Source: Escherichia coli
GTDB taxonomy: Bacteria > Pseudomonadota > Gammaproteobacteria > Enterobacterales > Enterobacteriaceae
Length of the DNA: 64,000 bases
Direction: 5' to 3' (one strand)
Assembly (NCBI RefSeq): GCF_044324785.1
Contig: NZ_CP172127.1
Part shown: piece after piece, positions 723 to 18,603 of the stretch
How the letters are laid out: every line of letters starts with the position of its first letter
Position numbering within the stretch: position 1 is the first letter of the stretch
Translations under genes and position numbers: made by a program
Notes under the pieces: generated by a model
What the model saw: only the letters and a program-made list of their open reading frames with translations
Databases searched by the model: none
What the model was told of the DNA's origin: nothing

Positions 723-3235
723 TGCCAGTCGTACCAACAGTATCCGGACGTCAGGTTGAGAGTCGTGGAGTTCAGTCAGCAGGCTTGCAGACGTTTTCTC
801 AGCAAGGTATTGGTGATGCTTTTGTTCGGGCAGGGACAGAGGCAATTGATGTTTTGGGGCAGGCAAAACAGCGTGCCAATATCGCTCTGGCTCAGGAGGC
901 ATCTCTTAACCTCAGTCAGATAAGCAGCGATCTGCTGAATAATCCTGAAACAGGATTGCTTAACCTGAAAGGGAAAAATGCTATTGGAAAAGGCCATGAG
1001 TATACGCAGCAGTTTGATGCTCAGGTCGAACAACTGGCTATGTCGCTGCCGGATGAACAGGCTCGTAATGCTTTCATGCAGCAGGCGCAGCAGCAGCGCA
1101 TTCAGTTCACTACGCAGGCCGGGCGACACGAGATAGGGCAAATTAATGCCTACGAAGAAGGCCAGTTTCAGGCGACACTGCTGAACAATGGTAAAAATGC
1201 CGCAGCATTGTATGGCGACAACGCCGCATACGTATTGGCTAACAAACAAACTTTCCAGCAAATTGAGGAGTACGGTGTTGCACATGGCTGGAGCAACGAG
1301 CAAATCCAGGCCAAGAAAATCGAGTTTAAAGAGAAGGTTGCTGATGCTGCATTGTCCCAGTGGTCGGCAAACAATGCGACCGCATTCATCCAAAGTAATG
1401 GCGAGTTAAGTGATACTGCTGCTGGAGCTCGCCGTGCTGTAGCAGATAGTGACTCTTCCGAGCGTGCCCGTGGCATACGCAACAATAACCCAGGAAATCT
1501 CGAATACAGCAAAACTAATCCGTGGGTAGGCCAGACCGGTGATGATGGTCGATTTGCTAAATTCGAAACACCTGAACACGGGATTCGTGCATTAGGGCGG
1601 AACCTGATGTCGTATCAGAGGCAGGGTATTGATACCGTCAGCGAGATAATTAATCGCTGGGCACCGCCTGCTGATAAAAATGACACTATGTCGTATATCA
1701 AAGCAGTGTGCGAACAACTTGGCGTTTCTGCTGATGAGCCTCTCGATGCATCTAATCCTGATACCCTGAAGGCGCTTTGTGCAGCCATTATCCATCATGA
1801 GAACGGTAGCCAGCCATACAGTGATCAGCAGTTAACTGCTGGTGTCAGTGCAGCACTTGGTTTATCAACAATTCCAACCAACACCAAACGCTATACCGGT
1901 AATGCAGCATTCGATGCGGCATCTCCTGAGGCGCAGGCAAGTTTTATGCGACAGGCGGATCAACTGCGTCGGCAGCAGCAGGCTGAATATAAAACGATGA
2001 TTGACAGCCAGGTTCGCGATGCGACAGCTGCGTATATGCGTGGCGTTGAATTTCCTAACCCACCTGGTGAGGCTGATTTTATTGCAGCTTATGGAGTAAG
2101 AGAAGGAAACCTGCGATATACCGAGTTCAGAAATACGCAAATCGCCGGACAGTATATAGGCTCTTTCCGCAACATGCCGACAAGCAGCATTACAGCATAT
2201 GTTGAGCAATTACGCCCGGATACTGGTGAGACAGGGGAGGGTTATGCGGCACGAGCCGCTCTTTATGACAACGTTGTGTCGGCTGCAAGTCAGGTGATAA
2301 AGCAGCGACAGGCTGATCCTGTACAGTTCTCTCTTGCCGCCGGACAGACAAAGCCTATCGACATGAGCAATAAGGATAACTTTGGACAGAGCGTTGCCTT
2401 GCGTGCTGCTCAGGTCAGTGACCTTGCTAAGTCATATGGCACTCCACTGACGTTCTTTTCCAAAGACGAGGCCAATCAGATCGGTGTTTTCTTTCGTGAT
2501 GCGCCCGTTTCCCAACAGGCAGCATATCTCGATACCATCAGGCAGAGCACTGGTGGTGGGCAGGTGTATATGTCAGCACTACAGCAGATCAGTGCCAACG
2601 CTCCATCTGCTGCCGTTGCCGGGATACTGATGGATAAGCCAGGTGGTATTTTGGCAGAAAAAAACTGGTTTAATCCGGATGTTTCCGTGTCTCCTGAAAC
2701 CGCTGCGCAGACAATTCTTGCTGGCGCGGCGGCTCGTAAAGGTACTGATGATGCGAAAGGTATTCCGATGCCTAAAGATGCTGATCTTCGCCTTGAGTTT
2801 TCTGACATGGTGAAGGATGCATTTGCTGGTGACGCTCAGGGGGCATCAATGGCATACGAGATCGCAAAGGATTATTACGCTGGTGTGATGGCGAAAAAAG
2901 GCGTGGTATCAGGCGAAATTGACAATGATGTCTGGAAACAGGCTGTTAACGTAGCTACAGGTGGCGTGCATGACTATAACGGAATGGGGAATGTCCTTTT
3001 GCCGTGGGGAATGTCTGCAGAGCAATTCGATAAGCAGGTTAATCAGGCTTGGAATGAACAAGTTGTCGGCTCTGGGATAAAAACACCGCCTGGTCAGTAT
3101 GGTTTGCAAAGTTACGGCGATAGTCAGTACCTGGTGAAACTTGGTACTGGTTATCTGCTGAAAGATGATGGTTCTCCCGTTGTTCTTAATCTGACACAGA
3201 AGCGTCAGAGATTCTCCGGAGATATTCCGCAATGA
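722..3235 (+). CDS. Large phage virion/ejection (core or tail-hub type) protein, about 837 aa
   Basis: ORF 647..3235 with likely start at ATG 722 overlapping upstream stop; coiled-coil-like Gln/Ala-rich stretches; conserved-looking NNNPGNLEY segment. Confidence 0.5.
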   Translation: MPVVPTVSGRQVESRGVQSAGLQTFSQQGIGDAFVRAGTEAIDVLGQAKQRANIALAQEASLNLSQISSDLLNNPETGLLNLKGKNAIGKGHEYTQQFDAQVEQLAMSLPDEQARNAFMQQAQQQRIQFTTQAGRHEIGQINAYEEGQFQATLLNNGKNAAALYGDNAAYVLANKQTFQQIEEYGVAHGWSNEQIQAKKIEFKEKVADAALSQWSANNATAFIQSNGELSDTAAGARRAVADSDSSERARGIRNNNPGNLEYSKTNPWVGQTGDDGRFAKFETPEHGIRALGRNLMSYQRQGIDTVSEIINRWAPPADKNDTMSYIKAVCEQLGVSADEPLDASNPDTLKALCAAIIHHENGSQPYSDQQLTAGVSAALGLSTIPTNTKRYTGNAAFDAASPEAQASFMRQADQLRRQQQAEYKTMIDSQVRDATAAYMRGVEFPNPPGEADFIAAYGVREGNLRYTEFRNTQIAGQYIGSFRNMPTSSITAYVEQLRPDTGETGEGYAARAALYDNVVSAASQVIKQRQADPVQFSLAAGQTKPIDMSNKDNFGQSVALRAAQVSDLAKSYGTPLTFFSKDEANQIGVFFRDAPVSQQAAYLDTIRQSTGGGQVYMSALQQISANAPSAAVAGILMDKPGGILAEKNWFNPDVSVSPETAAQTILAGAAARKGTDDAKGIPMPKDADLRLEFSDMVKDAFAGDAQGASMAYEIAKDYYAGVMAKKGVVSGEIDNDVWKQAVNVATGGVHDYNGMGNVLLPWGMSAEQFDKQVNQAWNEQVVGSGIKTPPGQYGLQSYGDSQYLVKLGTGYLLKDDGSPVVLNLTQKRQRFSGDIPQ

Positions 3236-5034
3236 GTTACTTTGGCCTTAATCCAGTAAACCAGAATCAGCAGCTTGACGAAGCAGCATCAAATCCAGCT
3301 GGCTTTAACAGCGATGTTGGTTTTTTCGACAATGCTGTAGGAGCGGCATTGTCTGGTTTGTACTCCGGGCTGGTGGCAAAGCCAGATCAGTTGCTATGGG
3401 CAGGGATGGATAAAATCGTATCCCCGATTGCTCAGTTTATTAACGAAAACACCTCGCTCAATGATACTTCAGTTTCATACATTGCCGAGCAGAGAAAACT
3501 AGCAGAGCAGCAGGTTAAGCGGCTGACGCCTGATGCCGCGACAACCGGAACCGCCGGGCAGGTTCTTTATGGGTTGTTCGATATGGGCGGGCAGGCTGTT
3601 GTCGGTACAACGCTCGGTGGTCCTGTCGGAGGTGCAGCGGCGGTAACTTCGCTACAGGGTTTTTCTGAGTTTGAACGGCTGACAGCACAGGGTGTTGATT
3701 TCAGGACGGCGCAGGAAGCGGGATTAGTGCAGGGCATTACTGCTGGTGCCGGAACACTGATCCCTATGAGCCTCGGGTTACGTGCTGGTGGTGCGCTGGC
3801 GGAAGGTGTGGCGGCTCAGCTTGCGCGGGCGGGTGAGAGTTCAGTGCGACGCGCCGCAGCAACAGCAGTACGTGCAACGCCAGATATTGCCTATGCCGCA
3901 GGTACAAATATTGCGTTCGGTATGGCACAGCGTGGGCTTACTGCAAAAACACTTCGTGATGGTGGCTATAGCGAAATGGCTAACCAGTATGATGTGTTGG
4001 ATCGACAGGCAATTGCTATTGATGCTGTTCTTGGGGTGGCGTTTGGTGGTGTCGGCAGATTTATTAACTCTCGCGGCGAGTCTACAAGCGCACCAAATTT
4101 TTCACCAGTTGATGTTGATGCTGCACTGGCGGCGAATGCCGCTCATCATGCTGAAATTGATATTGCGCCCGGCGTGCCGATCAACGTGCTTTCGCGCAAT
4201 TCTCACATTCAGGCTCTGCGAAAAGCTATGTCTGATGTTAGCCAGGGGAGACCTGTAGACGTTGCCAGCATTGTTGAGTCTGCATCTTTCAGTGAAATTC
4301 CTGGGCGCAAGAGTCTGCTGTCTCAGGCAGTTAATGAGGCTCTGTCATCTGTAGATGATGGAGTAACGGCGCGCGCTATAGAAAATCGGTTGCTTGAAGA
4401 ACAGGCCGCGCAGCTTTTGCCGCGTGGCGATAGACAGGTTTACCAGTCTGAAATAGCTAATAGCCAACGAATTATTGAAAATCTCACTGAACAGCGCGCA
4501 CAAATTCTTGCAGAAGAGCCAACCGGTAGCGGTAAATCTTTGTCTCGTGCTCGATCAGATAAACAGGTCAGACTTCGCGATATTGACCAACGAATCCGGC
4601 AGGCACAAGAACGCCTGGAATTTTCCCGTAACGCGTTGGCACCGCATGAGCCTGGCGGTCAGTTTTTTGAAGCTCGAGCAGAACTGGCACGGAGACAGCA
4701 GGCTGAAAGTGAACTTAATGCTCAGGCTGTTTCATTCTATAAAACAGCAGAGGTCAGGACGCCAGACGAAGTAGCTCCTTTTGAGCCTGATAAAATATTG
4801 CAACAGGCAGAACAAAAAATGATGGCGGATCAGGCAGGAGATATTGATCTGCGCATAGCTGAAGACTCGCTGCTTGAATCACCTGACATGATAATCACCG
4901 TGCTGGATGATGATGGTAATCCACAATCGCGCAGCGCGCGTGAAGTACTGGATGAAGCGAACAGGGAAAGTGAGCAGGCAATACAGGATTCCAGCCTGTT
5001 TGATGTCGCTGTGGCGTGTTTCTTGAGAGGTTAA
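3232..5034 (+). CDS. Phage virion/ejection protein, 600 aa, Gly/Ala-rich N-terminal half and charged coiled-coil C-terminal half
   Basis: ORF track; ATGA overlap with upstream stop. Confidence 0.5.
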   Translation: MSYFGLNPVNQNQQLDEAASNPAGFNSDVGFFDNAVGAALSGLYSGLVAKPDQLLWAGMDKIVSPIAQFINENTSLNDTSVSYIAEQRKLAEQQVKRLTPDAATTGTAGQVLYGLFDMGGQAVVGTTLGGPVGGAAAVTSLQGFSEFERLTAQGVDFRTAQEAGLVQGITAGAGTLIPMSLGLRAGGALAEGVAAQLARAGESSVRRAAATAVRATPDIAYAAGTNIAFGMAQRGLTAKTLRDGGYSEMANQYDVLDRQAIAIDAVLGVAFGGVGRFINSRGESTSAPNFSPVDVDAALAANAAHHAEIDIAPGVPINVLSRNSHIQALRKAMSDVSQGRPVDVASIVESASFSEIPGRKSLLSQAVNEALSSVDDGVTARAIENRLLEEQAAQLLPRGDRQVYQSEIANSQRIIENLTEQRAQILAEEPTGSGKSLSRARSDKQVRLRDIDQRIRQAQERLEFSRNALAPHEPGGQFFEARAELARRQQAESELNAQAVSFYKTAEVRTPDEVAPFEPDKILQQAEQKMMADQAGDIDLRIAEDSLLESPDMIITVLDDDGNPQSRSAREVLDEANRESEQAIQDSSLFDVAVACFLRG

Positions 5035-5039
5035 ATTAA

Positions 5040-7514
5040 ATGAGACAGGAATGTATACAAGCGGTCCAGCAGGCGGCGCAGCGCACGTTAACGGCGCGAG
5101 AAATACAGAACATTGAAGACCGCATTTATCGAAATATGCGCTCCATTGCTCGTGATGACCCGATGTCGTGGAGACAACTTTCCGAATCAGAGCGGCTATA
5201 TCGTGCAGCACAATTGGCATCTGAAGAATTACAGCGAGAAGCGGCATTAAAGAAACGTCGTGTGGCCCTCACTATAGCCGCACGTCAGAGATTGGATAAA
5301 TTTATCAATAGCTATCAAGGGGCTGATGGGAAACTTGGCGCTCTTAACCGTACTATTGCTTTTAATGCAGACGGTAAATCGAATTTCCTCTCTGTTGAAT
5401 CCAGAACAAAAGCCACTCGTGATTATGCATTGAGTCAATTGCAGGAGGCATTTGAAGCAGTTGATCCTCGCTTTTTTGGCCTGTTTGAAGATGAAGCTGG
5501 CGTGCGTGACCTGGTATATGAAATGCGAGGGCAAAATACTGGCAATGCTAAAGCAAGAAAAGGTGCTAAGGCGTGGAGAGAAGTGACAGAGCTACTGCGC
5601 CGCCGGTTTAATGATGCTGGTGGGGACATTGGCTATCTCGAAAACTGGGGGCTCCCTCAACATCATTCTATGGAAAAGGTTGGGGCGGTATCAAAGGATA
5701 AGTGGGTTAGCGATGTTATAGGTAAGCTGGATCGCAAATATTATACCCGAGTCGATGGACAACTGATGAACGATGCCGAGTTGTCTGCATTTCTTGGAGA
5801 GGCTTATAACACGATCGCTACTGGTGGGCTGAATAAGCTTACTGATACCGGAATGCGAATTTCCGGCGCACGTGCTAACCGGGGTAATGCATCACGACAG
5901 ATACATTTCAAAGATGCAGATTCCTATCTGCAATATCAGCAACTTTATGGCGATCGCTCTCTATGGGAAATCATGGTCGGTCACCTGGAAGGTATCAGTA
6001 AAGATATTGCACTGGTGGAAACATATGGCCCAAACCCCGATCATGTTTTCCGCTCTCTTCTTGATCAGGTGAAGGCAGAAACGGCAACAGCTAACCCGAG
6101 TAAAACCGGTAAAGTCGAGCGGCTGGCGAACAACACAGAGAATCTGTACAACTTTATTTCCGGAAAGACACAGCCTGTAGCGAATCCGCACATCGCGCGA
6201 TGGTCTGACAATATCCGCAACTGGCTGGTTGCCAGCAGACTCGGATCCGCGTTGCTGTCATCGTTCTCTGATCTTGGAACCATGTATCTGTCTGCGAAGG
6301 TTACCAACCTTCCAATGAACCAGTTATTCCGCAACCAGCTTGAAGCTATGGACCCAACGAACCGTACAGAACTTGCGCGGGCGCGCCGCGCTGGTCTGGC
6401 GATGGAATCTCTACTTGGCAGCGTTAACCGCTGGGCGATGGATAATATGGGGCCGTCTGTGTCTCGTTGGGCTGCAACGGCGGTAATGCGTGCCAGTGGG
6501 CTTACAGCATGGTCAGATGCGCACAAGCGCGCCTATGGCGTAACCATGATGGGAAGCCTGGGAGAAGTAGTGTCACGGACACCAGACCTTCGTAGCCTCG
6601 ATGATTCTGATTTTCGTATCCTGAAAAGCAAAGGGATTACTGACACAGACTGGAGCGTATGGAAGCTGGCGCAACAGGAGGACTGGGGGAACGGTAATAA
6701 TACGATGCTGACACCGGAAAGCATTATGCGTATCCCTGATTCAGCAGTTAAACATCTTGGTGAGCCTGAACGCGTGAAATTTGAGGCAATGCGTAAACTG
6801 CTCGGTGCCGTAACTGAAGAAGTTGATATGGCTGTTATTACACCGGGTGCACGTGAGCAACTGATAACCGGTTCTGGTATTCAGCGTGGAACATGGAAAG
6901 GTGAATTAACGAGAAGTGTTTTCCTGTTTAAATCGTTCCCTATCTCGGTGGTTATGCGTCACTGGTCACGCGCTATGGGTATGCCGTCGGCTGGTGGGCG
7001 TGCGGCATATATTGCGACGTTTATTGCCAGTACGACCATTCTTGGCGCTTTGTCGCAGCAACTTAACGACCTTGCGTCTGGTCGTAATCCTCGCGAGATG
7101 ACAGGAGAAGATGCTGCTAAATTTTGGCTTGGTGCTCTACTGAAAGGTGGTGGTCTTGGCCTTTACGGTGACTTTTTATTGTCAGATCACACTAGGTACG
7201 GAAGCGGCGCGCTGGCGTCGATGCTTGGCCCGGTAGCTGGTCTGGTTGATGACGTAGTGAAGATTGCTCAGGGCATACCGTTAAATGCTGTGGAAGGGAA
7301 GAATGAGCAGACTGGTGGTGATCTGGTTAAGCTGGGGAAAGGTCTGATGCCAGGTGCGAATCTCTGGTACTTAAAGGCGGCTCTCGATCACATGATCTTT
7401 AACCAGATGCAGGAGTATTTTTCACCAGGTTATTTGCGTAAAATGGAGCAACGTTCGAAGAAAGAGTTTAACCAGACATACTGGTGGCGACCACAGGATG
7501 TCACTCCGCAATAA
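5040..7514 (+). CDS. Large phage virion/ejection protein, 824 aa
   Basis: ORF track; RBS gagagg upstream; last gene of coupled block. Confidence 0.5.
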   Translation: MRQECIQAVQQAAQRTLTAREIQNIEDRIYRNMRSIARDDPMSWRQLSESERLYRAAQLASEELQREAALKKRRVALTIAARQRLDKFINSYQGADGKLGALNRTIAFNADGKSNFLSVESRTKATRDYALSQLQEAFEAVDPRFFGLFEDEAGVRDLVYEMRGQNTGNAKARKGAKAWREVTELLRRRFNDAGGDIGYLENWGLPQHHSMEKVGAVSKDKWVSDVIGKLDRKYYTRVDGQLMNDAELSAFLGEAYNTIATGGLNKLTDTGMRISGARANRGNASRQIHFKDADSYLQYQQLYGDRSLWEIMVGHLEGISKDIALVETYGPNPDHVFRSLLDQVKAETATANPSKTGKVERLANNTENLYNFISGKTQPVANPHIARWSDNIRNWLVASRLGSALLSSFSDLGTMYLSAKVTNLPMNQLFRNQLEAMDPTNRTELARARRAGLAMESLLGSVNRWAMDNMGPSVSRWAATAVMRASGLTAWSDAHKRAYGVTMMGSLGEVVSRTPDLRSLDDSDFRILKSKGITDTDWSVWKLAQQEDWGNGNNTMLTPESIMRIPDSAVKHLGEPERVKFEAMRKLLGAVTEEVDMAVITPGAREQLITGSGIQRGTWKGELTRSVFLFKSFPISVVMRHWSRAMGMPSAGGRAAYIATFIASTTILGALSQQLNDLASGRNPREMTGEDAAKFWLGALLKGGGLGLYGDFLLSDHTRYGSGALASMLGPVAGLVDDVVKIAQGIPLNAVEGKNEQTGGDLVKLGKGLMPGANLWYLKAALDHMIFNQMQEYFSPGYLRKMEQRSKKEFNQTYWWRPQDVTPQ

Positions 7515-8267: not shown

Positions 8268-8293
8268 TCCACAAAAAAGCCCGCAGCGCGGGC
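8268..8293 (-). terminator. Rho-independent terminator of the two-gene cassette
   Basis: Minus strand GCCCGCGCUGCGGGC hairpin followed by UUUUUUG, overlapping stop codon at 8293-8295. Confidence 0.6.
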
Positions 8294-8733
8294 TATTCTT
8301 CTTCATCATTAAAAAGCGGATTGTTGTTTCCATCTGATGAAAGGAAAGGTATGTGTTCTCTTGAAAATCCAACAATGACAATTTCATTATCATTTTTTGC
8401 ATAATGAATGCATTCATTAGAATGCCTTCCGCCAGGGTTGAAATTTAAGTTAATGGTATAATTCTTAAATGTGTTTGGATACCATGTTGGCCCACAATGA
8501 TAATGCCAATAATTCTCTTGCTCATAATTGTCTGAGCCGGGAATTTTATCATGGTTATCATCAACCCACGAGGGCTTGTTTTTTCCAACAAGCGCCCTTC
8601 CATTGGCAACATCCTCTAAAAAACTTTGTATGATTTTTATTTCATCATCAGTAAGGAAAGGTCCGTCTACAGCGAAAGGGGTGTTGCTTTCCCCATGTAG
8701 AAAACTATTAGATATTCTAATGTTAAACTTCAA
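8293..8733 (-). CDS. Unknown 146-aa protein, no internal Met, proposed TTG start, acidic C-terminus (AT-rich cargo gene)
   Basis: Frame of ORF 8293..8874; AGGAG 6 nt before TTG 8733; upstream part of the 193-aa ORF overlaps a better-supported small gene in another frame. Confidence 0.45.
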   Translation of the reverse strand: MKFNIRISNSFLHGESNTPFAVDGPFLTDDEIKIIQSFLEDVANGRALVGKNKPSWVDDNHDKIPGSDNYEQENYWHYHCGPTWYPNTFKNYTINLNFNPGGRHSNECIHYAKNDNEIVIVGFSREHIPFLSSDGNNNPLFNDEEE

Positions 8734-8753
8734 GGAAAACTCCTGATGTGCTT

Positions 8754-8921
8754 CTATTTGGAGCGAAATGCCGCCTTGAAGTCGCTGAAAGATGTTCCTG
8801 TCTGGTAAACCATATCCTTGTCGCGCTCTTTGCTTGCGCGGCCAAGCATAACTTTTCCAATGACATCCCAGCATTGCTTGGCTTGTTCATTGTGCTGAGT
8901 ACGATTTTTCAACGCTGTCAT
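8754..8921 (-). CDS. Unknown small basic protein, 55 aa (MTALKNRTQHNEQAKQCWDVIGKVMLGRASKERDKDMVYQTGTSFSDFKAAFRSK)
   Basis: ATG 8921 preceded by AAAGGAGG at 7-nt spacing; hand-translated; below ORF-track length cutoff. Confidence 0.45.
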   Translation of the reverse strand: MTALKNRTQHNEQAKQCWDVIGKVMLGRASKERDKDMVYQTGTSFSDFKAAFRSK

Positions 8922-8947
8922 ATCGCGCCTCCTTTACCTTTAAGGTA

Positions 8948-8976
8948 ATAGTACGCTATTCACCCACAGTCTGCAA
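8948..8976 (-). promoter_or_regulatory. Sigma70-like promoter of the two-gene cassette (TTGCAG, 17 bp, TACTAT)
   Basis: Minus-strand reading about 27 nt upstream of ATG 8921. Confidence 0.4.
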
Positions 8977-9020: not shown

Positions 9021-9713
9021 TCAGAAGAACCCTGCTTTGTCGTTGATGTACTCCGCGTGCGTCTGGATATCACGCAGGCATTTGCTCACACCGACGATGT
9101 AGCAGAACATGGTGGTCAGCTCCGCCGCCGCGCCCGATACGTCGTGCCCGTCTTCCTGTAACTGGTTCAGCAGATTCATCAGCAGTGAGTTCTCCGTCAG
9201 GCCGAGAACACCAGACGGCGAATGAATCAGGCTGCGGTAGCCGGGCTTCAGCGGGGCGCTGTAGGTTTTGTTCTCTATCTTCATCGCCTGCATTACTGCT
9301 GACGCCGTGGCGTTGGCTACCTGGTCGGCAACCATCTTTATGCGTTCTTCCTGCGGGAGCGAGTTTTTAATGTAACTTCCGGTGCGACGGATCTGAGGAA
9401 GAACCTCACCTGTAACCCATTCAAGAAATCTGAATGCTCTCGTTCCCTCTGTCATTGCCTCTTTGCAACGCAGAATAAGGATGTAGAGACCTGATTCTGA
9501 AACGATGGATAGTTCTTGTATTCCACCAGGGGTCTGTATTGAATACAGCCCCTTTTTGTTCCAGCCTTTTTTATCAAGTTTTCTCGCTTGTGTAACATCA
9601 ATATTCAAAGCATTGCACACATCTTTGGTGACAAACCAAGGTTCTCCGTCAATCATGAACATACGGATCTGGCAGGATGACTCAAAGGAAAAGATGGAAG
9701 GTTTGGTATTCAT
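9021..9713 (-). CDS. Bro-N domain antirepressor-like protein, about 230 aa
   Basis: N-terminal FSF...IR..MIDGEPWFVTKDVCNALNI matches Bro-N/phage antirepressor signature; start ATG 9713 after AAGGTGA. Confidence 0.7.
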   Translation of the reverse strand: MNTKPSIFSFESSCQIRMFMIDGEPWFVTKDVCNALNIDVTQARKLDKKGWNKKGLYSIQTPGGIQELSIVSESGLYILILRCKEAMTEGTRAFRFLEWVTGEVLPQIRRTGSYIKNSLPQEERIKMVADQVANATASAVMQAMKIENKTYSAPLKPGYRSLIHSPSGVLGLTENSLLMNLLNQLQEDGHDVSGAAAELTTMFCYIVGVSKCLRDIQTHAEYINDKAGFF

Positions 9714-9857
9714 GGCGATCACCTTTGTAGTTAGGTTAATCACCACCGCTGAGACCAATCAGATGGTGGTGAACTGTGCAGAGTTGGTCTTACCGGCTAC
9801 AAAGGAACCCGGCGCACCTTTCGGTGCCCCCACACAGCCCACCATAGAATAGGTGCG

Positions 9858-9876
9858 CTTTACACATAAAAAAACC
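9858..9876 (-). terminator. Weak candidate terminator (4-bp GC stem plus U7) ending the LexA-controlled transcript
   Basis: Minus strand GCGG-auaa-CCGC then UUUUUUU. Confidence 0.3.
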
Positions 9877-9890
9877 GCTTATGCGGCATA

Positions 9891-9944
9891 TGTGCCTCTG
9901 TAGTAATCCGGGAGACCAATCCCGGCACTGGATTTTGCCAGTGC
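9891..9944. other. Three-way-junction forming element: 7-bp outer stem enclosing two 6-bp hairpins
   Basis: tagtaat / ccggga-gaccaa-tcccgg / cactgg-attttg-ccagtg / attacta, all perfect complements. Confidence 0.4.
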
Positions 9945-9960
9945 CTGATTACTATGGCAC

Positions 9961-9989
9961 AAGAGGAGTGCTTATATTTACCGCAAAGG
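9961..9989. other. Perfect 12-bp stem hairpin with 5-nt loop
   Basis: cttatatttacc gcaaa ggtaaatataag. Confidence 0.45.
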
Positions 9990-10023
9990 TAAATATAAGC
10001 ACTCCAGTTGGTAATTACAAACC

Positions 10024-10281
10024 TTATCTGGTTTGTTTTCGTAATTGTTCGGCACAATAGTCTAGATGTGTTTGCAGATCCTGCATAGACATCTGTGAGC
10101 TGGTGACGTAGTTAATCAGTGCAGTCAGTTCGGCAAGTGGGCCATCGACATTAAATCCATCCTTATCGAGATCCCGGAGTAATTTCATCAAGTGCGATCC
10201 CTCCACCAGTGACCTGACGCCTCCCGGCGTGTGAATCCTTTCGGTAAATCCGTCTTCCAGTGGATAGTGATACTGCTGCAT
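10024..10281 (-). CDS. 85-aa protein, stand-alone paralogue of the C-terminal domain of the Bro-N protein; candidate SOS-induced antirepressor
   Basis: ATG 10281 after GGAGAAG; alignable to residues about 170-230 of the 9021..9713 product; LexA box 22 bp upstream. Confidence 0.55.
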   Translation of the reverse strand: MQQYHYPLEDGFTERIHTPGGVRSLVEGSHLMKLLRDLDKDGFNVDGPLAELTALINYVTSSQMSMQDLQTHLDYCAEQLRKQTR

Positions 10282-10302
10282 CTTATCTTCTCCATGCAAT
10301 AA

Positions 10303-10318
10303 CTGTATAAATATACAG
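10303..10318. promoter_or_regulatory. LexA (SOS) box CTGTATAAATATACAG
   Basis: CTGT-N8-ACAG with AT-rich spacer, 18/20 match to TACTGTATATATATACAGTA including flanks. Confidence 0.65.
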
Positions 10319-10476
10319 TATCAAATAATTTGTTTGCTATCCAGCACGTTTTGCAAATCACCTGAAAGGTAATATCTTTTCGTATTTATGGATTATCTAT
10401 CCATATGTGGTTTTTCAGGTAATAGAATAACCAGATATGCGGCGCAACGGGTGCTGCGACTATCTGGAGATTTAAC

Positions 10477-13233
10477 ATGACGGTCTCAACCGAAGTTGAC
10501 CACAACGAATACACCGGTAACGGCGCTACGACATCATTTCCGTATACCTTCCGTATTTTCAAAAAATCCGACCTGGTTGTTCAGGTGTCTGACCTGAACG
10601 GGAACGTAACAGAATTGGTTCTGGATACCGGTTATACGGTAACTGGGGCGGGCACTTATAGTGGCGGTTCTGTTGTTCTTCCGTCGCCGCTTGCTGCTGG
10701 ATGGCGAATTACGATAGATCGTGTGCTTGATGTAGTGCAGGAGACAGACCTTCGCAATCAGGGAAAATTTTTCCCCGAAGTGCATGAAGATGCTTTTGAC
10801 TACCTGACGATGCTGATCCAGCAATGTTTTGGGTGGTTCAGACGTGCATTGATGAAACCATCTTTGCTTGCAAAATATTACGATGCAAAGCAAAACAGAA
10901 TTTCTAACCTTGCAGATCCATCACTTGAGCAGGATGCTGTAAATAATCGCTCAATGCGTAATTATGTTGATGCTGCAATCGCCGGAGTTGTTGGTGGTTT
11001 TGGTTGGTTTATTCAGTATGGTTCTGGAGCAGTATACCGAACGTTCCAGGATAAGATGCGGGATAACGTTAACGCTCTTGATTTTGTTCCGTTTGAGCAA
11101 AGATATGCTGCATTAAATTTTGAAGTTGATGCGTCTGAATGGTTAATTAATGCGATAAATTCTGGTGCAAGTGTCGTTAGAATACCTGCAGGTAAATGGA
11201 TGATTTCTAAGAACATAGATGTGCCTCCTGGAGTGTCATTAATTGGTGATGGCATTGATTATTGGGATACATATAGACCAGCGCCTGAAAGATTATTAAA
11301 AAGTTGGAGTAAAGGAACCCATCTTGTATTTACTGGTGATGGAGAAAAAAACAAATATTTTTTTAACATCTCTAATGAAAGACCAGTTAAAATTGTTGAA
11401 GGGATATCTTGTAAGTTCACTGAGTTTACAAATGAAGATTCTGTAGGTGTTACTCCTGCTACACCAAAAGCCATGAGCGTAGCTGTTAGTATCAACAGGG
11501 CATCACAGTTACGCAACCTGAGAATAATGGTAAGTAAAAATGGTATTGAAGGATACAATAACCCTGATTCTTATTCATTGGGTGATGACTGGGATATAGG
11601 GTTGCATGTATACGATAGCTGTGATTCAGTTATTGATAACGTACAGATTGTCGGCTATTGGAGGGTAAAAGGACTACTACTGACAGAAAATGACGGGAGC
11701 CTTTCAATGAAGGGAAATCCTGAAAAAACGCACTTTAATAACGTTTATGTCCAGTCAGGGATCGCGATAAGGAATAGCCCTCAGATTGATCTTGTAAGTA
11801 ATACTGAAAGCTCAGTGACATTTAAACATAAAAAGTCGATGAGAATAACTTCAGTTAAACAGTTTAAAATTGCTGGCAGTGAATTAGTATATACGTATTC
11901 AGATGCATCATTTGATGGAACTAACATCACACTATCTGGTATTTCTCCTGAAATACAAGGTACAATAAGTGTAATCAGGTTTCCGTCAATTGGTAATAAT
12001 TTTAGCGGGACTGTTTTTGAGAATACAGTAGCCACTACTCTTGATCATACATCAGGTAAGCCATCAGAATACTTTGGCCTTCCTGCATCCTTTGCATTAG
12101 AGGTTGATGGTTTCCCTGTTCGTAATTTAAGGTTTGATAAATTCAAAGCTCAAACAACATTTGATAAAGGAAATTGCATTTTTGGTGATTGCCGTGATGT
12201 TAAAATAACATCATCTGAGTTTGAAAATGGAATTATGATTGCGTATAACCTGACCGAGACTCAGGGTTATACAGGAAATCTTAGATTTTTTGCTTCTGAT
12301 CTTCAGAGCAGCGTTAACACAAGTGAGTTTAAACCAAGAGACGCATTTGTAGACAATAGACAAATAAAAACGGAGTTTACTGATGGTTCGTTCATTATAA
12401 AGAACTGGAGGCCTACAGATACAAAAATACAATGGTCGTCTGGAGCAGATGCTATTGTTCTTAGAGAGTCACCTGACGAACAATCAAACGGAAATATTTA
12501 CGGGCATCACATTGATGGTAAAAGATGGATTAATGTTAGTGGATATAACAAAGATATAAATATTTCATCAAGAAACTTAAGCGTAAAAAACCATGGTGAT
12601 GACTCTGCAGTTATTAATATATTCGGCGACTCTGGAAATATTGCCATTAAAGGTAATTTTTCACCAATTATTGATAACAGCAAATCTCTTGGTGCACCAT
12701 CATTTAGATGGGCACAGGTTTATTCTGCGAACGGTTCGATAAACACATCAGATGGTAGAGAAAAAAGTGAACCGATTAGTACAAGTGAGCTCAGCTTGTA
12801 TATGTCTCGTGGTTATGAAGGTGATGCAATTCTGGATGCATGGGGAGATATCAGGATTGTAGCTTTTCGCTGGCTTGATGCCGTCAGGGAAAAGGGAGAT
12901 GGTGCCCGCTGGCATTTTGGTGTTATAGCACAACAAGTGAGAGACGCTTTCCTCGCGCATGGGATTGATGGAACCAGATTTGGCCTTCTCTGTTACGATG
13001 AATGGGATGATAAATACGCGCCAGTGATGGCGGTAAGGATGATCACTAAAGTTGTGGATGGCGTCGAAATTGAGATGGAAGAAGAATACGAAACAGAAGA
13101 GCGAACTCTGGTTTGCAAGGCTGGAAATAGGTGGGGTATCCGTACTGACCAGTGTTTATGGCTTGAGTCAGCTTATTTGCGTAGAAGAATCGAAAAAATA
13201 GAATCACGTCTTGCAATGCTTGAAAGTAGCTAA
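10477..13233 (+). CDS. Tailspike/tail fibre, 918 aa: T7 gp17-like N-terminal anchor, AT-rich central receptor-binding part, C-terminal intramolecular chaperone (peptidase S74-like) domain
   Basis: ORF track; GGAG RBS; N-terminal pattern resembling podovirus fibre anchors; C-terminal SDGREK motif region; GC drop in the middle. Confidence 0.8.
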   Translation: MTVSTEVDHNEYTGNGATTSFPYTFRIFKKSDLVVQVSDLNGNVTELVLDTGYTVTGAGTYSGGSVVLPSPLAAGWRITIDRVLDVVQETDLRNQGKFFPEVHEDAFDYLTMLIQQCFGWFRRALMKPSLLAKYYDAKQNRISNLADPSLEQDAVNNRSMRNYVDAAIAGVVGGFGWFIQYGSGAVYRTFQDKMRDNVNALDFVPFEQRYAALNFEVDASEWLINAINSGASVVRIPAGKWMISKNIDVPPGVSLIGDGIDYWDTYRPAPERLLKSWSKGTHLVFTGDGEKNKYFFNISNERPVKIVEGISCKFTEFTNEDSVGVTPATPKAMSVAVSINRASQLRNLRIMVSKNGIEGYNNPDSYSLGDDWDIGLHVYDSCDSVIDNVQIVGYWRVKGLLLTENDGSLSMKGNPEKTHFNNVYVQSGIAIRNSPQIDLVSNTESSVTFKHKKSMRITSVKQFKIAGSELVYTYSDASFDGTNITLSGISPEIQGTISVIRFPSIGNNFSGTVFENTVATTLDHTSGKPSEYFGLPASFALEVDGFPVRNLRFDKFKAQTTFDKGNCIFGDCRDVKITSSEFENGIMIAYNLTETQGYTGNLRFFASDLQSSVNTSEFKPRDAFVDNRQIKTEFTDGSFIIKNWRPTDTKIQWSSGADAIVLRESPDEQSNGNIYGHHIDGKRWINVSGYNKDINISSRNLSVKNHGDDSAVINIFGDSGNIAIKGNFSPIIDNSKSLGAPSFRWAQVYSANGSINTSDGREKSEPISTSELSLYMSRGYEGDAILDAWGDIRIVAFRWLDAVREKGDGARWHFGVIAQQVRDAFLAHGIDGTRFGLLCYDEWDDKYAPVMAVRMITKVVDGVEIEMEEEYETEERTLVCKAGNRWGIRTDQCLWLESAYLRRRIEKIESRLAMLESS

Positions 13234-15477: not shown

Positions 15478-16017
15478 TTAATTAAACCAGCTGTCCGATT
15501 TGTTCTCTTCTGCTTTGCCCACGCTTTTCATCAGATCGCGACCGCCCTCAGTCATATTCCTGTTTGCGTCAGCTTCAGATTGCACCACATCGGTTTGCGC
15601 AGCTTTGTGCTTCAGTTCCTGATCGATAAATTCGTTTTCGCGCTTAACGCGGGCTTCTTCTTTCGCCAGCGCCAGTTTTTGTTTCTGAATCTCTAAGCTG
15701 CGTAGCTCATCTTCATAACTTTGATCGCGTTTTTTGTCCGCAGTGGCTTCGGCGTCCAGTTTATCCTGACGAGCTTTCTTATTTGCCGCTGCCGTTGCCG
15801 CTCTTTTATTAGCGGCGGCCTGGGCATTTGCGCGACGTTGCTTCTCTTGCTGGATTTCCCTGTTGCGCTCCGCGACCCATTCGTCATGCTGCCTTTGCTC
15901 TTCATTTTTACCTTGCTGTTCCGCTTCTGCGACAGCAGAGAGTTGATCCTGCAATGATGAGGCGATAGCCGGATAGCTTAAGGAGGCTAAGATGGCGCAA
16001 AGAAAAACTTTCTTCAT
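15478..16017 (-). CDS. yfgI: YfgI, 179 aa, signal peptide, charged repetitive protein
   Basis: ORF track; length and synteny with K-12. Confidence 0.8.
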   Translation of the reverse strand: MKKVFLCAILASLSYPAIASSLQDQLSAVAEAEQQGKNEEQRQHDEWVAERNREIQQEKQRRANAQAAANKRAATAAANKKARQDKLDAEATADKKRDQSYEDELRSLEIQKQKLALAKEEARVKRENEFIDQELKHKAAQTDVVQSEADANRNMTEGGRDLMKSVGKAEENKSDSWFN

Positions 16018-16032
16018 GACTCCTCCTGATTA

Positions 16033-16551
16033 TTAGCTCTTTTCAGGACATTTGGTATTTGGCTGAATACGCGTTTCGTTATACGTCGTGGTAATAACAA
16101 CGGCTAAACCTGTCGTAAACTGGCACTCTTTACCCACCTGGGTGGAGGTATACACTTTGGTGCCTTCCTTATACGTTAGAGAAACACCTTCCACTAAGGT
16201 TTTATCATTCACCATAGAACCTGCTGCCGCGCCTACAGCTCCGCCGCCAACTGCACCTGCCGTCGTTCCGGAATTGCTGCCAGACCCGACGTTGTGGCCA
16301 ATAACACCGCCAGCGACTGCACCAATAAGCGCGCCGAAGGCTTGTGCGTTTCGTTTATTTTGGGAGTTGTCTACGGCAACTTTTGCGGGAAGAATGGAAA
16401 TAATATTAACGGTTTTAGTTTCTTGTTTGGTATTCAGTTGATCGGTTTGATAAACATCGGCGGCATGATCATCAGCATTTGACTGGCATCCTGCCAGAGT
16501 GAATGACGCTAACATTGCCACAGGCAGAAGACATTTTTTAAATTTCATCAC
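16033..16551 (-). CDS. yfgH: YfgH outer-membrane lipoprotein, 172 aa, Gly-zipper region
   Basis: Lipobox LAGC; synteny. Confidence 0.8.
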   Translation of the reverse strand: MMKFKKCLLPVAMLASFTLAGCQSNADDHAADVYQTDQLNTKQETKTVNIISILPAKVAVDNSQNKRNAQAFGALIGAVAGGVIGHNVGSGSNSGTTAGAVGGGAVGAAAGSMVNDKTLVEGVSLTYKEGTKVYTSTQVGKECQFTTGLAVVITTTYNETRIQPNTKCPEKS

Positions 16552-16861
16552 TATTCCTTGTTATACACATTACGAAAAATAAGACATTTAAGATCATCAA
16601 AAGAGGAAAGTAAATGTATTGCGTATAAAGGAATAGATTAAATTTATTAAAATTCATGTGGAAAATAATTTATAAAAATACATCATTAAAACATATGTAT
16701 TAATTTTATATTTATTTCGCAGCCAAACAGGATAAACATCAGTCAGGACAAAGACGTAAAATTTAAGATGAAAGAATATCTGCCGCTTTGATAATCCCAA
16801 AGAGCAAAAGCATCCGACAGCGAGGTGCCGTTATGTTCTGTGAAAGTGGAGAAGGTAACCG

Positions 16862-17053
16862 CTAACGTTGTACCGGTGATTCGACGGAGAGTGTGGATTG
16901 CTGAGCTTCTTTTTTGCTCTGATGGTGCTGCCATGCACCGACGGACGAGTAGATAAAACGGCCAAAGAAGAAGATAAAGCTGATGAGCAGTACGATACGG
17001 GTCATGCGACTGTTAAATCGGTGTCGTTTTCGCATACTGGTTGCCTGACTCAC
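16862..17053 (-). CDS. yfgG: YfgG small membrane protein, 63 aa
   Basis: ORF track; synteny. Confidence 0.7.
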   Translation of the reverse strand: MSQATSMRKRHRFNSRMTRIVLLISFIFFFGRFIYSSVGAWQHHQSKKEAQQSTLSVESPVQR

Positions 17054-17301
17054 AAAAGGTTCCTTGAAGTATGTCCCACGCTGTGGACGGTACTTACATT
17101 AAGGCACAACAGGACAAAATGGTCAATTCTTCGTTATGTAAAAAAGCGTCAGTGGATACATATTTTAATGTTATGGAAGTTAATTTAATTATTTACAATG
17201 ATGATGTAATAATGATGAATTAACATGATAAACGTAATAATTCATTAATCAGGGTTATTTTGTTTGATATATATCAATTGGAACTTTCATATGACACTTA
17301 G

Positions 17302-18496
<1,195 letters not shown>

Positions 18497-18603
18497 TTAG
18501 AATCAATGCTCTCTATAGTGATGAATAATCATCATTCGAAGTCAGGTGGGATGCCTGTCTGAATACACCTCCTTCAGGATGTGGGGGATTCTGCTGAGCA
18601 TCT

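Follow-up and report, generated by a model that had tools for sequence, protein, structure and literature searches.

Two paralogous antirepressors with a common Ant fold, probably wired to different inputs, in an epsilon15-like prophage of Escherichia coli

The window analysed here is a stretch of 64,000 nucleotides from Escherichia coli, into which an epsilon15-like prophage extends. Within it, the gene for an 85-aa protein (ant) lies on the minus strand beside a divergently oriented tailspike gene (10477–13233, plus strand), with an injection-protein gene on the other side. Its minus-strand neighbour encodes a Bro-N protein of 230 aa and, as the initial annotation had stated, the two genes are adjacent and on the same strand. 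Between them we see an isrK-like leader followed by a C4-type antisense RNA, with short inverted repeats—putative operators for the repressor Rep—distributed around the pair. The arrangement is real and common, and is made of known parts; the features are collected in Table 1.

Table 1. Features of the antirepressor locus, in window coordinates (a dot denotes a feature without assigned strand)
Feature	Position	Strand	Basis or remark
Putative Rep operator TTACC-TTTAA-GGTAA, exact	8934..8948	.	Downstream of Bro-N gene, upstream of next minus-strand unit
Bro-N::Ant-like antirepressor gene, 230 aa from ATG	9021..9713	-	phrog_130 'anti-repressor Ant', 3.5e-51
Ant-like C-terminal domain, residues 149-225	9039..9269	-	BLASTP to small Ant; 5d50_E, E = 9e-14
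Bro-N domain, residues 16-106	9396..9668	-	Pfam PF02498, E = 4.2e-13
C4 target b2 CUACAAAGG	9722-9730	-	Exactly complementary to C4; spans Bro-N Shine-Dalgarno sequence
C4 target a2 UUGGUCU	9752-9758	-	Exactly complementary to C4
C4-type antisense RNA	9762..9849	-	Rfam RF01695, 78.6 bits vs gathering score 45, full length 1-87
C4 segment a' AGACCAA	9784-9790	-	
C4 loop b' CCUUUGUAG	9797-9805	-	
isrK-like leader RNA	9868..9944	-	Rfam RF01394, 74.7 bits vs gathering score 50
Intrinsic terminator in isrK-like leader	Stem 9874-9887 + T7 run	-	Terminator scan
Upstream C4 target copies a1 and b1	9913-9919 (a1), 9895-9903 (b1)	-	Within isrK-like leader
Perfect 18-bp inverted repeat directly 3' of ant	9964..10005	.	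RNA hairpin, -31 kcal/mol
Putative Rep operator TTACC-GCAAA-GGTAA, exact	9978-9992	.	Core of 9964-10005 inverted repeat
Promoter-like site	10020 to 9992	-	Weak consensus match, 9/12; overlapped by putative Rep operator
ant, 85-aa small antirepressor	10024..10281	-	ATG start; SPC32H Ant orthologue by 5d50_E match and slot shared with SPC32H_020
LexA box CTGTATAAATATACAG	10303..10318	.	Perfect CTGT-N8-ACAG, 22 nt upstream of ant ATG
Putative Rep operator TCACC-TGAAA-GGTAA	10358..10372	.	ant-tailspike intergenic; one mismatch to TTACC-N5-GGTAA

Judged by its sequence, the 85-aa protein is an SPC32H-type Ant, and with that an antirepressor that has already been characterised: residues 2–84 match PDB chain 5d50_E with E = 4e-47, at 88% identity to SPC32H Ant. 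SPC32H Ant is reported to be under LexA control and has been crystallised with the repressor Rep (PDB 5D50); its tetramer binds Rep dimers, breaking up the DNA-binding Rep tetramer, and the domain needs no fusion partner to work as an antirepressor. The setting of the gene is equally familiar: the layout of ant and tailspike in the window is that of SPC32H_020/SPC32H_021, and the slot between injection-protein gene and tailspike is also kept in two distant members of the family (L017 and L019). Upstream of ant, CTGTATAAATATACAG is the sole perfect CTGT-N8-ACAG adjoining a gene start in the phage part of the window and is conserved in SPC32H, ZX5 and Kp4865, so that the LexA control originally proposed for the small gene is supported as a predicted site shared with SPC32H ant. 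Among the distant free-standing members, L019 has a LexA box with one mismatch; for L017 none was found at the standard spacing. The small ant gene is present in 528 of 5,426 complete E. coli genomes, where most copies are annotated 'hypothetical protein'.

The larger protein is annotated merely as 'BRO-N domain-containing protein'. Its reading frame can be extended in frame from a TTG—the sole upstream reading frame—to 9758. BLASTP aligns its C-terminal domain to the small protein with 31/74 residues identical, no gaps and E = 6e-16; the Smith-Waterman score of 161 compares with 26.4 +/- 4.3 (maximum 61) for 2000 shuffles of either sequence, or z ~31. The two 60-mers on which the similarity was first noticed begin at residues 17 (small protein) and 164 (large protein) and agree at 26/60 positions, and both proteins match phrog_450 (9e-48 for the small, 3e-37 for the large). 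A Pfam search of both proteins returned no family for the shared domain; a match to DUF724 (0.004) was dismissed as noise, and no NCBIfam model matches either protein. In the stretch downstream, a 193-aa ORF was considered as a YafO-family toxin, which is how the ORF there is annotated in TL-2011b, and is not homologous.

The full-length AF2 model of the Bro-N protein has a beta/alpha N-domain, for which Foldseek returned weak fold matches to the Ski/Dachshund and APSES DNA-binding domains; with this model only such N-domain matches were obtained, and Ant was not found. Re-modelling the C-terminal domain alone (pLDDT 87) recovered the Ant match: the model superposes on 5d50_E with a TM of 0.84, an rmsd of 1.1 Å and a probability of 1.0, the second match having E = 3.8. 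The gap-free alignment claimed at the outset thus withstands shuffling, and the structural comparison agrees with it; that the likeness arose from chance or composition instead of a duplication has next to no probability, being refuted by the z-score, the E-value, the common PHROG, the PDB chain and the fold. The initial annotation spoke of a 'free-standing copy' of the C-terminal domain, and whilst the homology so described holds, the direction does not: as it is the 85-aa protein that is the characterised antirepressor, the accurate wording gives an Ant domain to the Bro-N protein.

The fused tail is found in 469 of 5,426 complete E. coli genomes, and its partner varies. Ant-like tails also stand behind AntA, Phage_pRha, ORF6N and P22_AR_N heads and, at the E. 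coli locus, heads are swapped (Bro-N subtypes, AntA and ORF6N, with P22_AR_N in a second cassette) before a tail that stays 94–100% identical, as a tail in charge of lineage-specific targeting would be expected to do. Since Ant is described as a tetramer in SPC32H, the C-terminal domain might instead merely tetramerise the Bro-N protein, leaving its putative DNA-binding head to do the work, for example by operator competition. The best-modelled part of the protein is indeed a long C-terminal helix (residues 193–229, pLDDT >90) typical of assembly helices, and the fold matches of the head are DNA-binding domains. We nevertheless hold this to be unlikely: the exchange of five unrelated Pfam heads with the tail kept is hard to square with a specific function borne by the head, the polar residues retained in both paralogues (H17, D41, E51, T71 and H72 in small-Ant numbering) exceed the needs of a coiled-coil core, and the SPC32H domain is, by itself, sufficient as an antirepressor.

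The small and fused domains are ~37–42% identical and fall into separate clades, and both paralogues are retained in E. coli phages and in Klebsiella phages, for which reason we take the duplication to be old. The survey of related prophages that had been suggested finds the small/fused pairing again in E. coli and Klebsiella relatives, as well as in metagenomic epsilon15-like prophages; TL-2011b has three Ant-domain proteins. The stretch DGHDVSGAAAEL occurs in the small Ant of Klebsiella as well as in the fused domain, and gene conversion was considered as its origin; since DGHDVSGAAAEL is the family consensus, no conversion has to be assumed. In phiV10 a frameshift falls within the fused domain and the phage is still viable and temperate; the fused protein is therefore dispensable. 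That paralogues of a tetrameric protein sit side by side, and do so recurrently, could also point to the modulator or decoy that the initial annotation had offered as an alternative, mixed tetramers of fused domain and small Ant serving to damp or redirect the SOS-triggered antirepressor. At ~40% identity and after so old a split, however, hetero-assembly is not the default expectation, the predicted expression times of the paralogues differ (see below), and overexpression of the orthologue in ZX5 favoured lytic growth and did not hold it back (PMC9782041); we regard such a role as distinctly improbable.

The RNA elements upstream of the Bro-N gene, together with the putative Rep operators, were missed in the earlier reading, and it is these that define the second of the 'different conditions' to which it referred. 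Both the isrK-like leader and the C4-type RNA pass their Rfam gathering scores, whilst the RF03163 c4-a1b1 model gives 38.4 bits, under its gathering score of 46.7. The C4 element folds in C4-like fashion (-43.6 kcal/mol) and presents two segments, a' and b', with exact complements downstream, the second of them across the Shine-Dalgarno sequence of the Bro-N gene. In the leader, a1 equals a2 in every phage compared, and b1 pairs with b', with one G-U wobble in the window. Duplexfold predictions of C4 against its flanks were uninformative when set against shuffles, because long partners pair promiscuously, and C4 targeting was judged instead by explicit complementarity and by covariation counts. 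On these measures all 16 of the 16 C4-target pairs across six phages are paired (100%), four of them with compensatory double changes, with a co-deletion of b' and b2 and with four different a'/a specificities among the relatives. At six other loci, isrK and C4 stand upstream of every fused gene; both are absent from SPC32H, a phage without the fused gene. No leader ORF of the icd or orf45 type lies in the 48 nt between C4 (9762) and the Bro-N ATG (9713).

The motif TTACC-N5-GGTAA, which we infer to be the Rep operator, occurs ten times in SPC32H against 0.01 expected, always in intergenic positions and with three copies on each side of rep. In the window, one exact copy forms the core of the inverted repeat 3' of ant and overlaps the promoter-like site ahead of isrK; here the core ATTACC-N5-GGTAAAT is invariant across six phages. 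The copy in the ant-tailspike intergenic region has one mismatch, and its counterpart matches the motif fully in SPC32H, ZX5 and Kp4865. The third, downstream of the Bro-N gene, has a homologue in L007 (at 37402), and this putative operator marks the end of the antirepressor unit. A search of the window for rep itself found none, the left part of the prophage being off-window. Relatives that share the locus (Z142-1, ZX5, TL-2011b and Kp4865) encode a Rep of the 5d50_A family (E = 4e-42), the E. coli type being 43% identical to SPC32H Rep over its length and 38% in the C-terminal domain. Because Rep has diverged to this extent and the small Ant has not (88%), partner choice in the E. coli phages is uncertain.

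Each gene thus has control elements of its own, in keeping with the initial annotation's 'separately transcribed', but that description does not hold entirely: the interval from the ant stop codon to the promoter region of isrK has a strong hairpin, but its U tail is poor and a canonical terminator is missing, so that transcripts begun at the SOS promoter may run on into the isrK leader.

The interpretation that we favour, and consider probable, is that the locus holds two paralogous antirepressors of common Ant fold, wired to different inputs. LexA would keep ant off until, on DNA damage, Ant is made and disrupts the Rep tetramer as in SPC32H. For the Bro-N protein, we infer both that its diverged Ant domain binds a Rep-type repressor and when it is expressed. 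Its gene would form a P1-immI-like cassette—a Rep-operator promoter, the isrK leader with its terminator and a1/b1 decoys, C4, and targets at the ribosome-binding site (RBS)—and, given the Rep operator and the C4 targets, would be shut off twice in the lysogen, in transcription by Rep and in translation by C4. Inactivation of Rep would allow expression, as would the early phase of an infection, when Rep and C4 have yet to build up, and the product might then latch derepression at a second stage, counter the immunity of related resident prophages, or both. Rep is the likely target common to both proteins, the small one being an SPC32H-type Ant and a ZX5 Bro-N protein with the same last 115 residues having reduced lysogeny on overexpression, and the earlier suggestion of a shared target engaged under different conditions is, although indirect, still the best reading.

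The choice of the phage's own Rep as a common target has to be weighed against cross-talk, in which the fused domain would bind the Rep of heteroimmune epsilon15-like prophages during superinfection or co-induction (compare P22 Ant and Gifsy/Fels) and the small Ant alone would induce the resident. The separation of the small and fused domains into clades suggests different specificities, and the Rep C-terminal domains, at 38–63% identity between lineages that all share the operator motif, would fit an arms race at the antirepressor interface; the three Ant-domain proteins of TL-2011b, the tolerance of phiV10 for loss of the fused domain, and the documented cross-acting Salmonella antirepressors, one of them under phage-repressor rather than LexA control (PMC3121763), point the same way. 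Against this, the overexpressed ZX5 protein hit ZX5's own lysogeny and rep transcripts (PMC9782041), and the fused C-terminal domain is nearly constant in the E. coli phage lineage examined, which has one Rep type. We think cross-talk of this kind rather doubtful.

More tentatively, it is possible that a whole class of enterobacterial Bro-network antirepressors recognise their repressors through the Ant fold, with the Bro-N, AntA, Rha, ORF6N and P22_AR_N heads as interchangeable accessories, and that the epsilon15-like phages of E. coli and Klebsiella use it twice in series: Ant, freed by the SOS response, would remove Rep, whereupon the Rep- and C4-gated fused Ant would make derepression self-sustaining or would reach co-resident prophages with diverged Rep. 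If such a two-stage latch exists, target specificity should be readable from the sequence of the tail.

The individual parts (Ant, Bro-N and C4/isrK) are known already. Multi-domain phage antirepressors mostly have tails without annotation, and which part of them contacts the repressor is in general not known; here a tail without Pfam family is tied, by sequence and by fold, to a crystallised antirepressor-repressor complex, which offers the concrete proposal that the tail binds the repressor and the head is accessory. One phage would combine, in one fold, two classic induction logics, a LexA-controlled small antirepressor and an immI antirepressor gated by repressor and antisense RNA, and annotation could improve in ~10% of complete E. 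coli genomes.

Among known systems, immI of P1 and P7 reportedly combines a C1-controlled promoter, a C4 RNA with a1/b1 and a2/b2 targets, and icd-ant. The window shares the order of parts with P1: an operator at the promoter (putative here), upstream targets, C4, RBS targets and the antirepressor gene. Like the difference between P1 and P7, the specificity variants in the window's family come from C4 and its targets changing together. Unlike P1, the window lacks an icd-like ORF, for which the 48 nt leave no space, so that the C4 target spans the antirepressor's own RBS; its upstream element also has an isrK-type terminator, its antirepressor C-terminal domain is unrelated to P1 Ant, and its repressor would be Rep rather than C1.

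The isrK-orf45-anrP unit of Gifsy-1 consists of an isrK with a leaky terminator and a processed RNA of ~80 nt, ahead of an antirepressor-like gene that is silent in translation (Hershko-Shalev et al. 2016, PMC4825925), and the window's element passes the isrK gathering threshold. The likeness rests on the layout of RNA and genes and not on AnrP sequence. In Gifsy-1 a 45-codon ORF mediates control and the output studied was AntQ toxicity (PMC4825925), whereas the window's cassette sits beside a LexA-controlled paralogue.

Experiments have been done on a relative, vB_EcoP_ZX5, which shares the locus and its neighbours and whose ORF4 is 81% identical to the Bro-N protein, the last 115 residues being identical. 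Overexpression of ORF4 lowered the lysogen titre ~1000-fold and rep transcripts by 75% (PMC9782041); the construct was GST-tagged and its domains were not separated. ORF4 was there taken as the only antirepressor, the adjacent small ant was left as a 'hypothetical protein', and neither the homology between the two nor the RNA leader was noted. These experiments need re-reading, since ZX5 has two antirepressors and the one tested, ORF4, is probably not the SOS trigger.

Within the Bro-N network, the Bro-N, AntA, Phage_pRha, ORF6N and P22_AR_N heads are swapped before a common tail, often beside immunity RNAs (PMC10111431); to this we add that the tail here is matched to a solved antirepressor and to a free-standing form with a LexA box. 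The Gifsy prophage antirepressors and Tum of coliphage 186 are small, LexA-controlled proteins encoded outside the immunity region that inactivate non-cleavable repressors, and a second Salmonella antirepressor, FsoA, is under phage-repressor control (Lemire et al. 2011, PMC3121763). Their likeness to the window's ant is functional only, and that study describes no locus that encodes one fold in both free-standing and fused form. Finally, SPC32H and the other Salmonella members have the small ant only, with neither the Bro-N fusion nor isrK/C4, but the Ant-Rep system of SPC32H (Kim & Ryu 2013; Kim et al. 2016; PDB 5D50/5D4Z) resembles the window in Ant itself, in the slot that the gene occupies, in the LexA box and in the operator-like site upstream.

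The 85-aa protein matches a single solved chain, the ‘Anti-repressor protein’ of the Rep-Ant crystal structure (5d50_E; E = 4e-47), and within the phage collection is 88% identical to the ant product of Salmonella phage SPC32H (SPC32H_020). The window covers the right-hand portion of a prophage of the epsilon15-like (Uetakevirus) kind, related to phiV10, TL-2011b, ZX5 and EC.W1-9 and integrated in E. coli between guaA and yfgI; here ant occupies the same slot as its SPC32H counterpart, flanked by the last of the injection-protein genes and by the tailspike gene, from which it diverges. LexA control of the small gene, as proposed in the initial annotation, is supported by the sequence: a perfect LexA box precedes its ATG and is kept in SPC32H, ZX5 and a Klebsiella relative. 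Antirepressors of the SPC32H type are produced once LexA is cleaved, and inactivate a non-cleavable repressor. Given the match to the solved chain, the identity to SPC32H ant, the shared slot, the LexA box and this documented class, the 85-aa protein is identified as the antirepressor already characterised. The right end of the prophage lies near 15.3–15.45 kb, and the host flank beyond it (window 15478–20847) carries genes resembling yfgI and yfgH, followed by an ORF for an IS5-family transposase (17370–18362) and by a gene resembling pdeF (yfgF).

The initial annotation had read the small protein as a free-standing copy of the domain that ends the neighbouring 230-aa Bro-N (‘fused’) protein; the observation is borne out, and its core idea is reasonable. 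The two align without gaps (31/74 identical; BLASTP E = 6e-16), with both assigned to PHROG 450, and the similarity is significant against shuffled controls: a local alignment score of 161, compared to 26 ± 4.3 for shuffles of either partner (n = 2000). Chance similarity is refuted. No Pfam family was found in the region shared by both proteins. Residues 149–225 of the fused protein match 5d50_E (E = 9e-14), the only PDB match obtained with a family profile of the domain. AlphaFold models the full protein (pLDDT 80) as a Bro-N head (1–111), a linker helix (121–143) and a helical tail (159–229); a full-length search with this model gave only weak fold matches, in which the head is paired with DNA-binding domains of the Ski/Dachshund and APSES types. 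Modelled alone (pLDDT 87), the tail fits onto Ant chains E and G in the Rep-Ant crystal structure (TM 0.84, rmsd 1.1–1.7 Å, probability 1.0), the next match lying at E = 3.8, so that the two folds are not unrelated.

Features of the ant and Bro-N region; window coordinates unless a phage or strain is named
Feature	Position	Strand	Remarks
85-aa protein ORF (ant)	10024–10281	minus	
230-aa Bro-N protein ORF	9021–9713	minus	counted from ATG; in-frame TTG extension to 9758
Bro-N domain	residues 16–106 of 230-aa protein		Pfam
LexA box, perfect	10303–10318		22 nt upstream of ant ATG
isrK-type RNA	9868–9944	minus	Rfam 74.7 bits; gathering score 50
Intrinsic terminator at end of isrK-type RNA	stem 9874–9887 + T7	minus	
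C4 antisense RNA	9762–9849	minus	Rfam 78.6 bits; gathering score 45
Perfect 18-bp inverted repeat	9964–10005		just upstream of isrK
Putative Rep operator, exact	9978–9992		isrK promoter region
Putative Rep operator, exact	8934–8948		next operon
Putative Rep operator, one mismatch	10358–10372		ant-tailspike region
55-aa ORF of two-gene unit	8754–8921	minus	PHROG 8607, function unknown
~145–190-aa ORF of two-gene unit	ends 8293	minus	PHROG 5954, function unknown
Bidirectional terminator closing two-gene unit	8278–8294		
~1 kb insertion between ant and isrK promoter region	TL-2011b 3826–4914; EC.W1-9 4162–5077; E. coli 2/0 10081–11104		two plus-strand genes

The Ant-domain family is narrow (68 clusters at E ≤ 1e-3 among 1.84 billion representative proteins) and comprises both free-standing proteins of 82–98 aa and larger proteins with the domain at their extreme C-terminus and, by Pfam, heads of the Bro-N (7), Phage_pRha (3), AntA, ORF6N or P22_AR_N type. 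A distance tree places the free-standing domains in one clade and the fused ones in another, and the Uetakeviruses of E. coli and Klebsiella each carry one copy of either kind (identity between genera of 59–63% for the small and 52% for the fused; ~37–42% between paralogues). Since the clades are separate and both paralogues are kept in each genus, the duplication is, judged by sequence, older than the split between the two groups of phages. The same pairing recurs among the related prophages surveyed, in E. coli, in Klebsiella and in a metagenomic epsilon15-like prophage; in the latter, an 87-aa ant whose LexA box has one mismatch is accompanied by a Rha::Ant-like fusion, and this fusion is preceded by a site resembling the operator, by isrK and by C4.

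At the guaA locus of E. coli prophages the head is swapped whilst the tail remains 94–100% identical, the heads being two Bro-N subtypes (~62% identical, as estimated from the alignment), AntA (strain 2/0) and ORF6N (strain 2020C08-115). TL-2011b has a third copy of the domain, in gp42 (733–1917), with a P22_AR_N head and a tail 91–94% identical to the window's; as this gene sits in its own P22-immI-like cassette (Arc-like repressor plus sar antisense RNA; Rfam RF00262, 44.8 bits), the phage possesses three antirepressor genes under three types of control. Were the tail the targeting part, one would expect it to stay constant while the heads are exchanged, as seen here; that a domain shared by such different heads should serve purely for oligomerisation seems to us quite improbable. 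Among 5,426 complete E. coli genomes the small gene is found in 528 and the fused tail in 469 (581 places), labelled by RefSeq as ‘hypothetical protein’ and ‘BRO-N domain-containing protein’, respectively.

The 310-nt gap from ant to the Bro-N gene is occupied by RNA elements, which Rfam places on the minus strand. Loop b′ of the C4 RNA (CCUUUGUAG) is exactly complementary to CUACAAAGG at 9722–9730, the Shine-Dalgarno region of the Bro-N gene, and segment a′ (AGACCAA) to UUGGUCU at 9752–9758, with a second copy inside the isrK element (9913–9919). The C4–target pairs, 16 in number, are 100% paired across six phages; four are changed on both sides, b′ and its downstream target b2 show a co-deletion, and none of the slid controls approaches the pairing observed. 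A seventh locus displays a fourth a′/a specificity. All relatives with a fused gene have both isrK and C4 ahead of it; SPC32H, without a fused gene, has neither RNA. More than 200 relatives of the leader, usually unannotated, are present in phage records, mostly in Stx1- and Stx2-converting phages (~70% identity). We take its anatomy to be that of the P1/P7 immI operon. The isrK-orf45-anrP locus of Gifsy-1 is built in the same way (PMC4825925). Unlike in P1/P7 immI and Gifsy-1, a leader ORF does not fit into the version in the window, and the target of the antisense RNA therefore spans the ribosome-binding site of the antirepressor gene itself.

The inverted repeat preceding isrK has a core, ATTACC-N5-GGTAAAT, that is invariant in 6/6 aligned phages and overlaps a promoter-like site. 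The rep gene lies outside the window; in SPC32H, TTACC-N5-GGTAA occurs 10 times (0.01 expected), always between genes; among these, three copies separate rep from the divergent early gene, three more follow shortly after rep, and one falls between ant and tailspike. The E. coli prophage of strain Z142-1 has the same pattern. The motif behaves like a repressor operator, and we infer that it is that of Rep. With this putative operator at the isrK promoter region and C4 pairing over the Shine-Dalgarno, the Bro-N gene is probably repressed twice, its transcription being blocked by Rep and its translation by C4. In the window and in phiV10, where no other gene stands between ant and the isrK promoter region, the 5+5 core is extended to the perfect 18-bp palindrome, an extension that may double as the ant terminator hairpin; relatives with genes in between keep the core alone. 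A minus-strand two-gene unit (8293–8948) behind the other exact copy resembles a slot for variable cargo controlled by the phage repressor, its longer ORF in the window not being homologous to the YafO-family toxin pair that relatives carry at the same place.

That the two antirepressor genes are separately transcribed, as originally claimed, stands in part: the Bro-N gene is served by a separate promoter region, operator and RNA leader, but in the window ant is followed only by a hairpin. Formed by the extended operator palindrome, this hairpin is strong (−31 kcal/mol, z = −6.4) but has a poor U tail, and it is all that separates the ant stop codon from isrK; SOS transcription could therefore run on into the isrK leader. 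Added IsrK RNA switches on translation of the downstream antirepressor in Gifsy-1 (PMC4825925), and by analogy an SOS link to the Bro-N gene through the leader is possible but speculative. In TL-2011b, EC.W1-9 and strain 2/0 the two genes are physically uncoupled by ~1 kb of opposite-strand genes; one of these, in strain 2/0, is annotated as a YafO-family toxin.

Comparing E. coli-type phages with SPC32H gives 43% identity for Rep (38% for its C-terminal domain) and 88% for the small Ant; between SPC32H and the Klebsiella relative Kp4865, the Rep C-terminal domain is 63% and Ant 60% identical. The divergence of the two proteins is thus decoupled, suggesting either immunity-module swapping or an Ant that reads a small conserved patch. 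The operator motif is apparently common to SPC32H, ZX5, Kp4865 and TL-2011b despite the divergence of Rep. Cross-talk, in which the fused tail would target the Reps of foreign phages, we regard as rather unlikely. The Bro-N gene of phiV10 (3012–3691) carries a frameshift within its Ant-like domain and appears in the annotation as two CDSs (p23, p22); on its sequence this phage is without a functional fused tail, so that the fused protein is dispensable.

ORF4 of ZX5 is 81% identical to the Bro-N protein of the window, the C-terminal 115 residues being identical. In the part of the ZX5 study covered here, its overexpression lowers the lysogen titre from ~1e9 to 1e6 and rep transcripts by 75%, and ORF4 is taken as the phage's antirepressor, with the adjacent ant unnamed; neither ORF4–ant homology nor an RNA leader is mentioned there (PMC9782041). 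That the fused protein is instead a decoy of the small Ant, whose fold its tail shares, is very improbable. We think it moderately probable that these phages encode two antirepressors with one repressor-binding fold: ant, released by LexA, would be the trigger, and the fused protein, gated by Rep and C4 and hence firing after Rep falls or early in infection, would act as a latch and/or anti-immunity factor.

Swapping domains and neighbouring immunity RNAs are described in the ‘Bro network’ paper (PMC10111431); the literature searched, this paper included, yielded nothing that connects the network with the Ant structure of SPC32H. All of the components are of known kinds: the Ant of SPC32H, the Bro-network antirepressors and the C4/isrK control of immI. 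What appears to be new is the recognition of the solved Ant fold as the tail of multi-domain antirepressors, together with the systematic pairing of free and fused forms under two different control logics.
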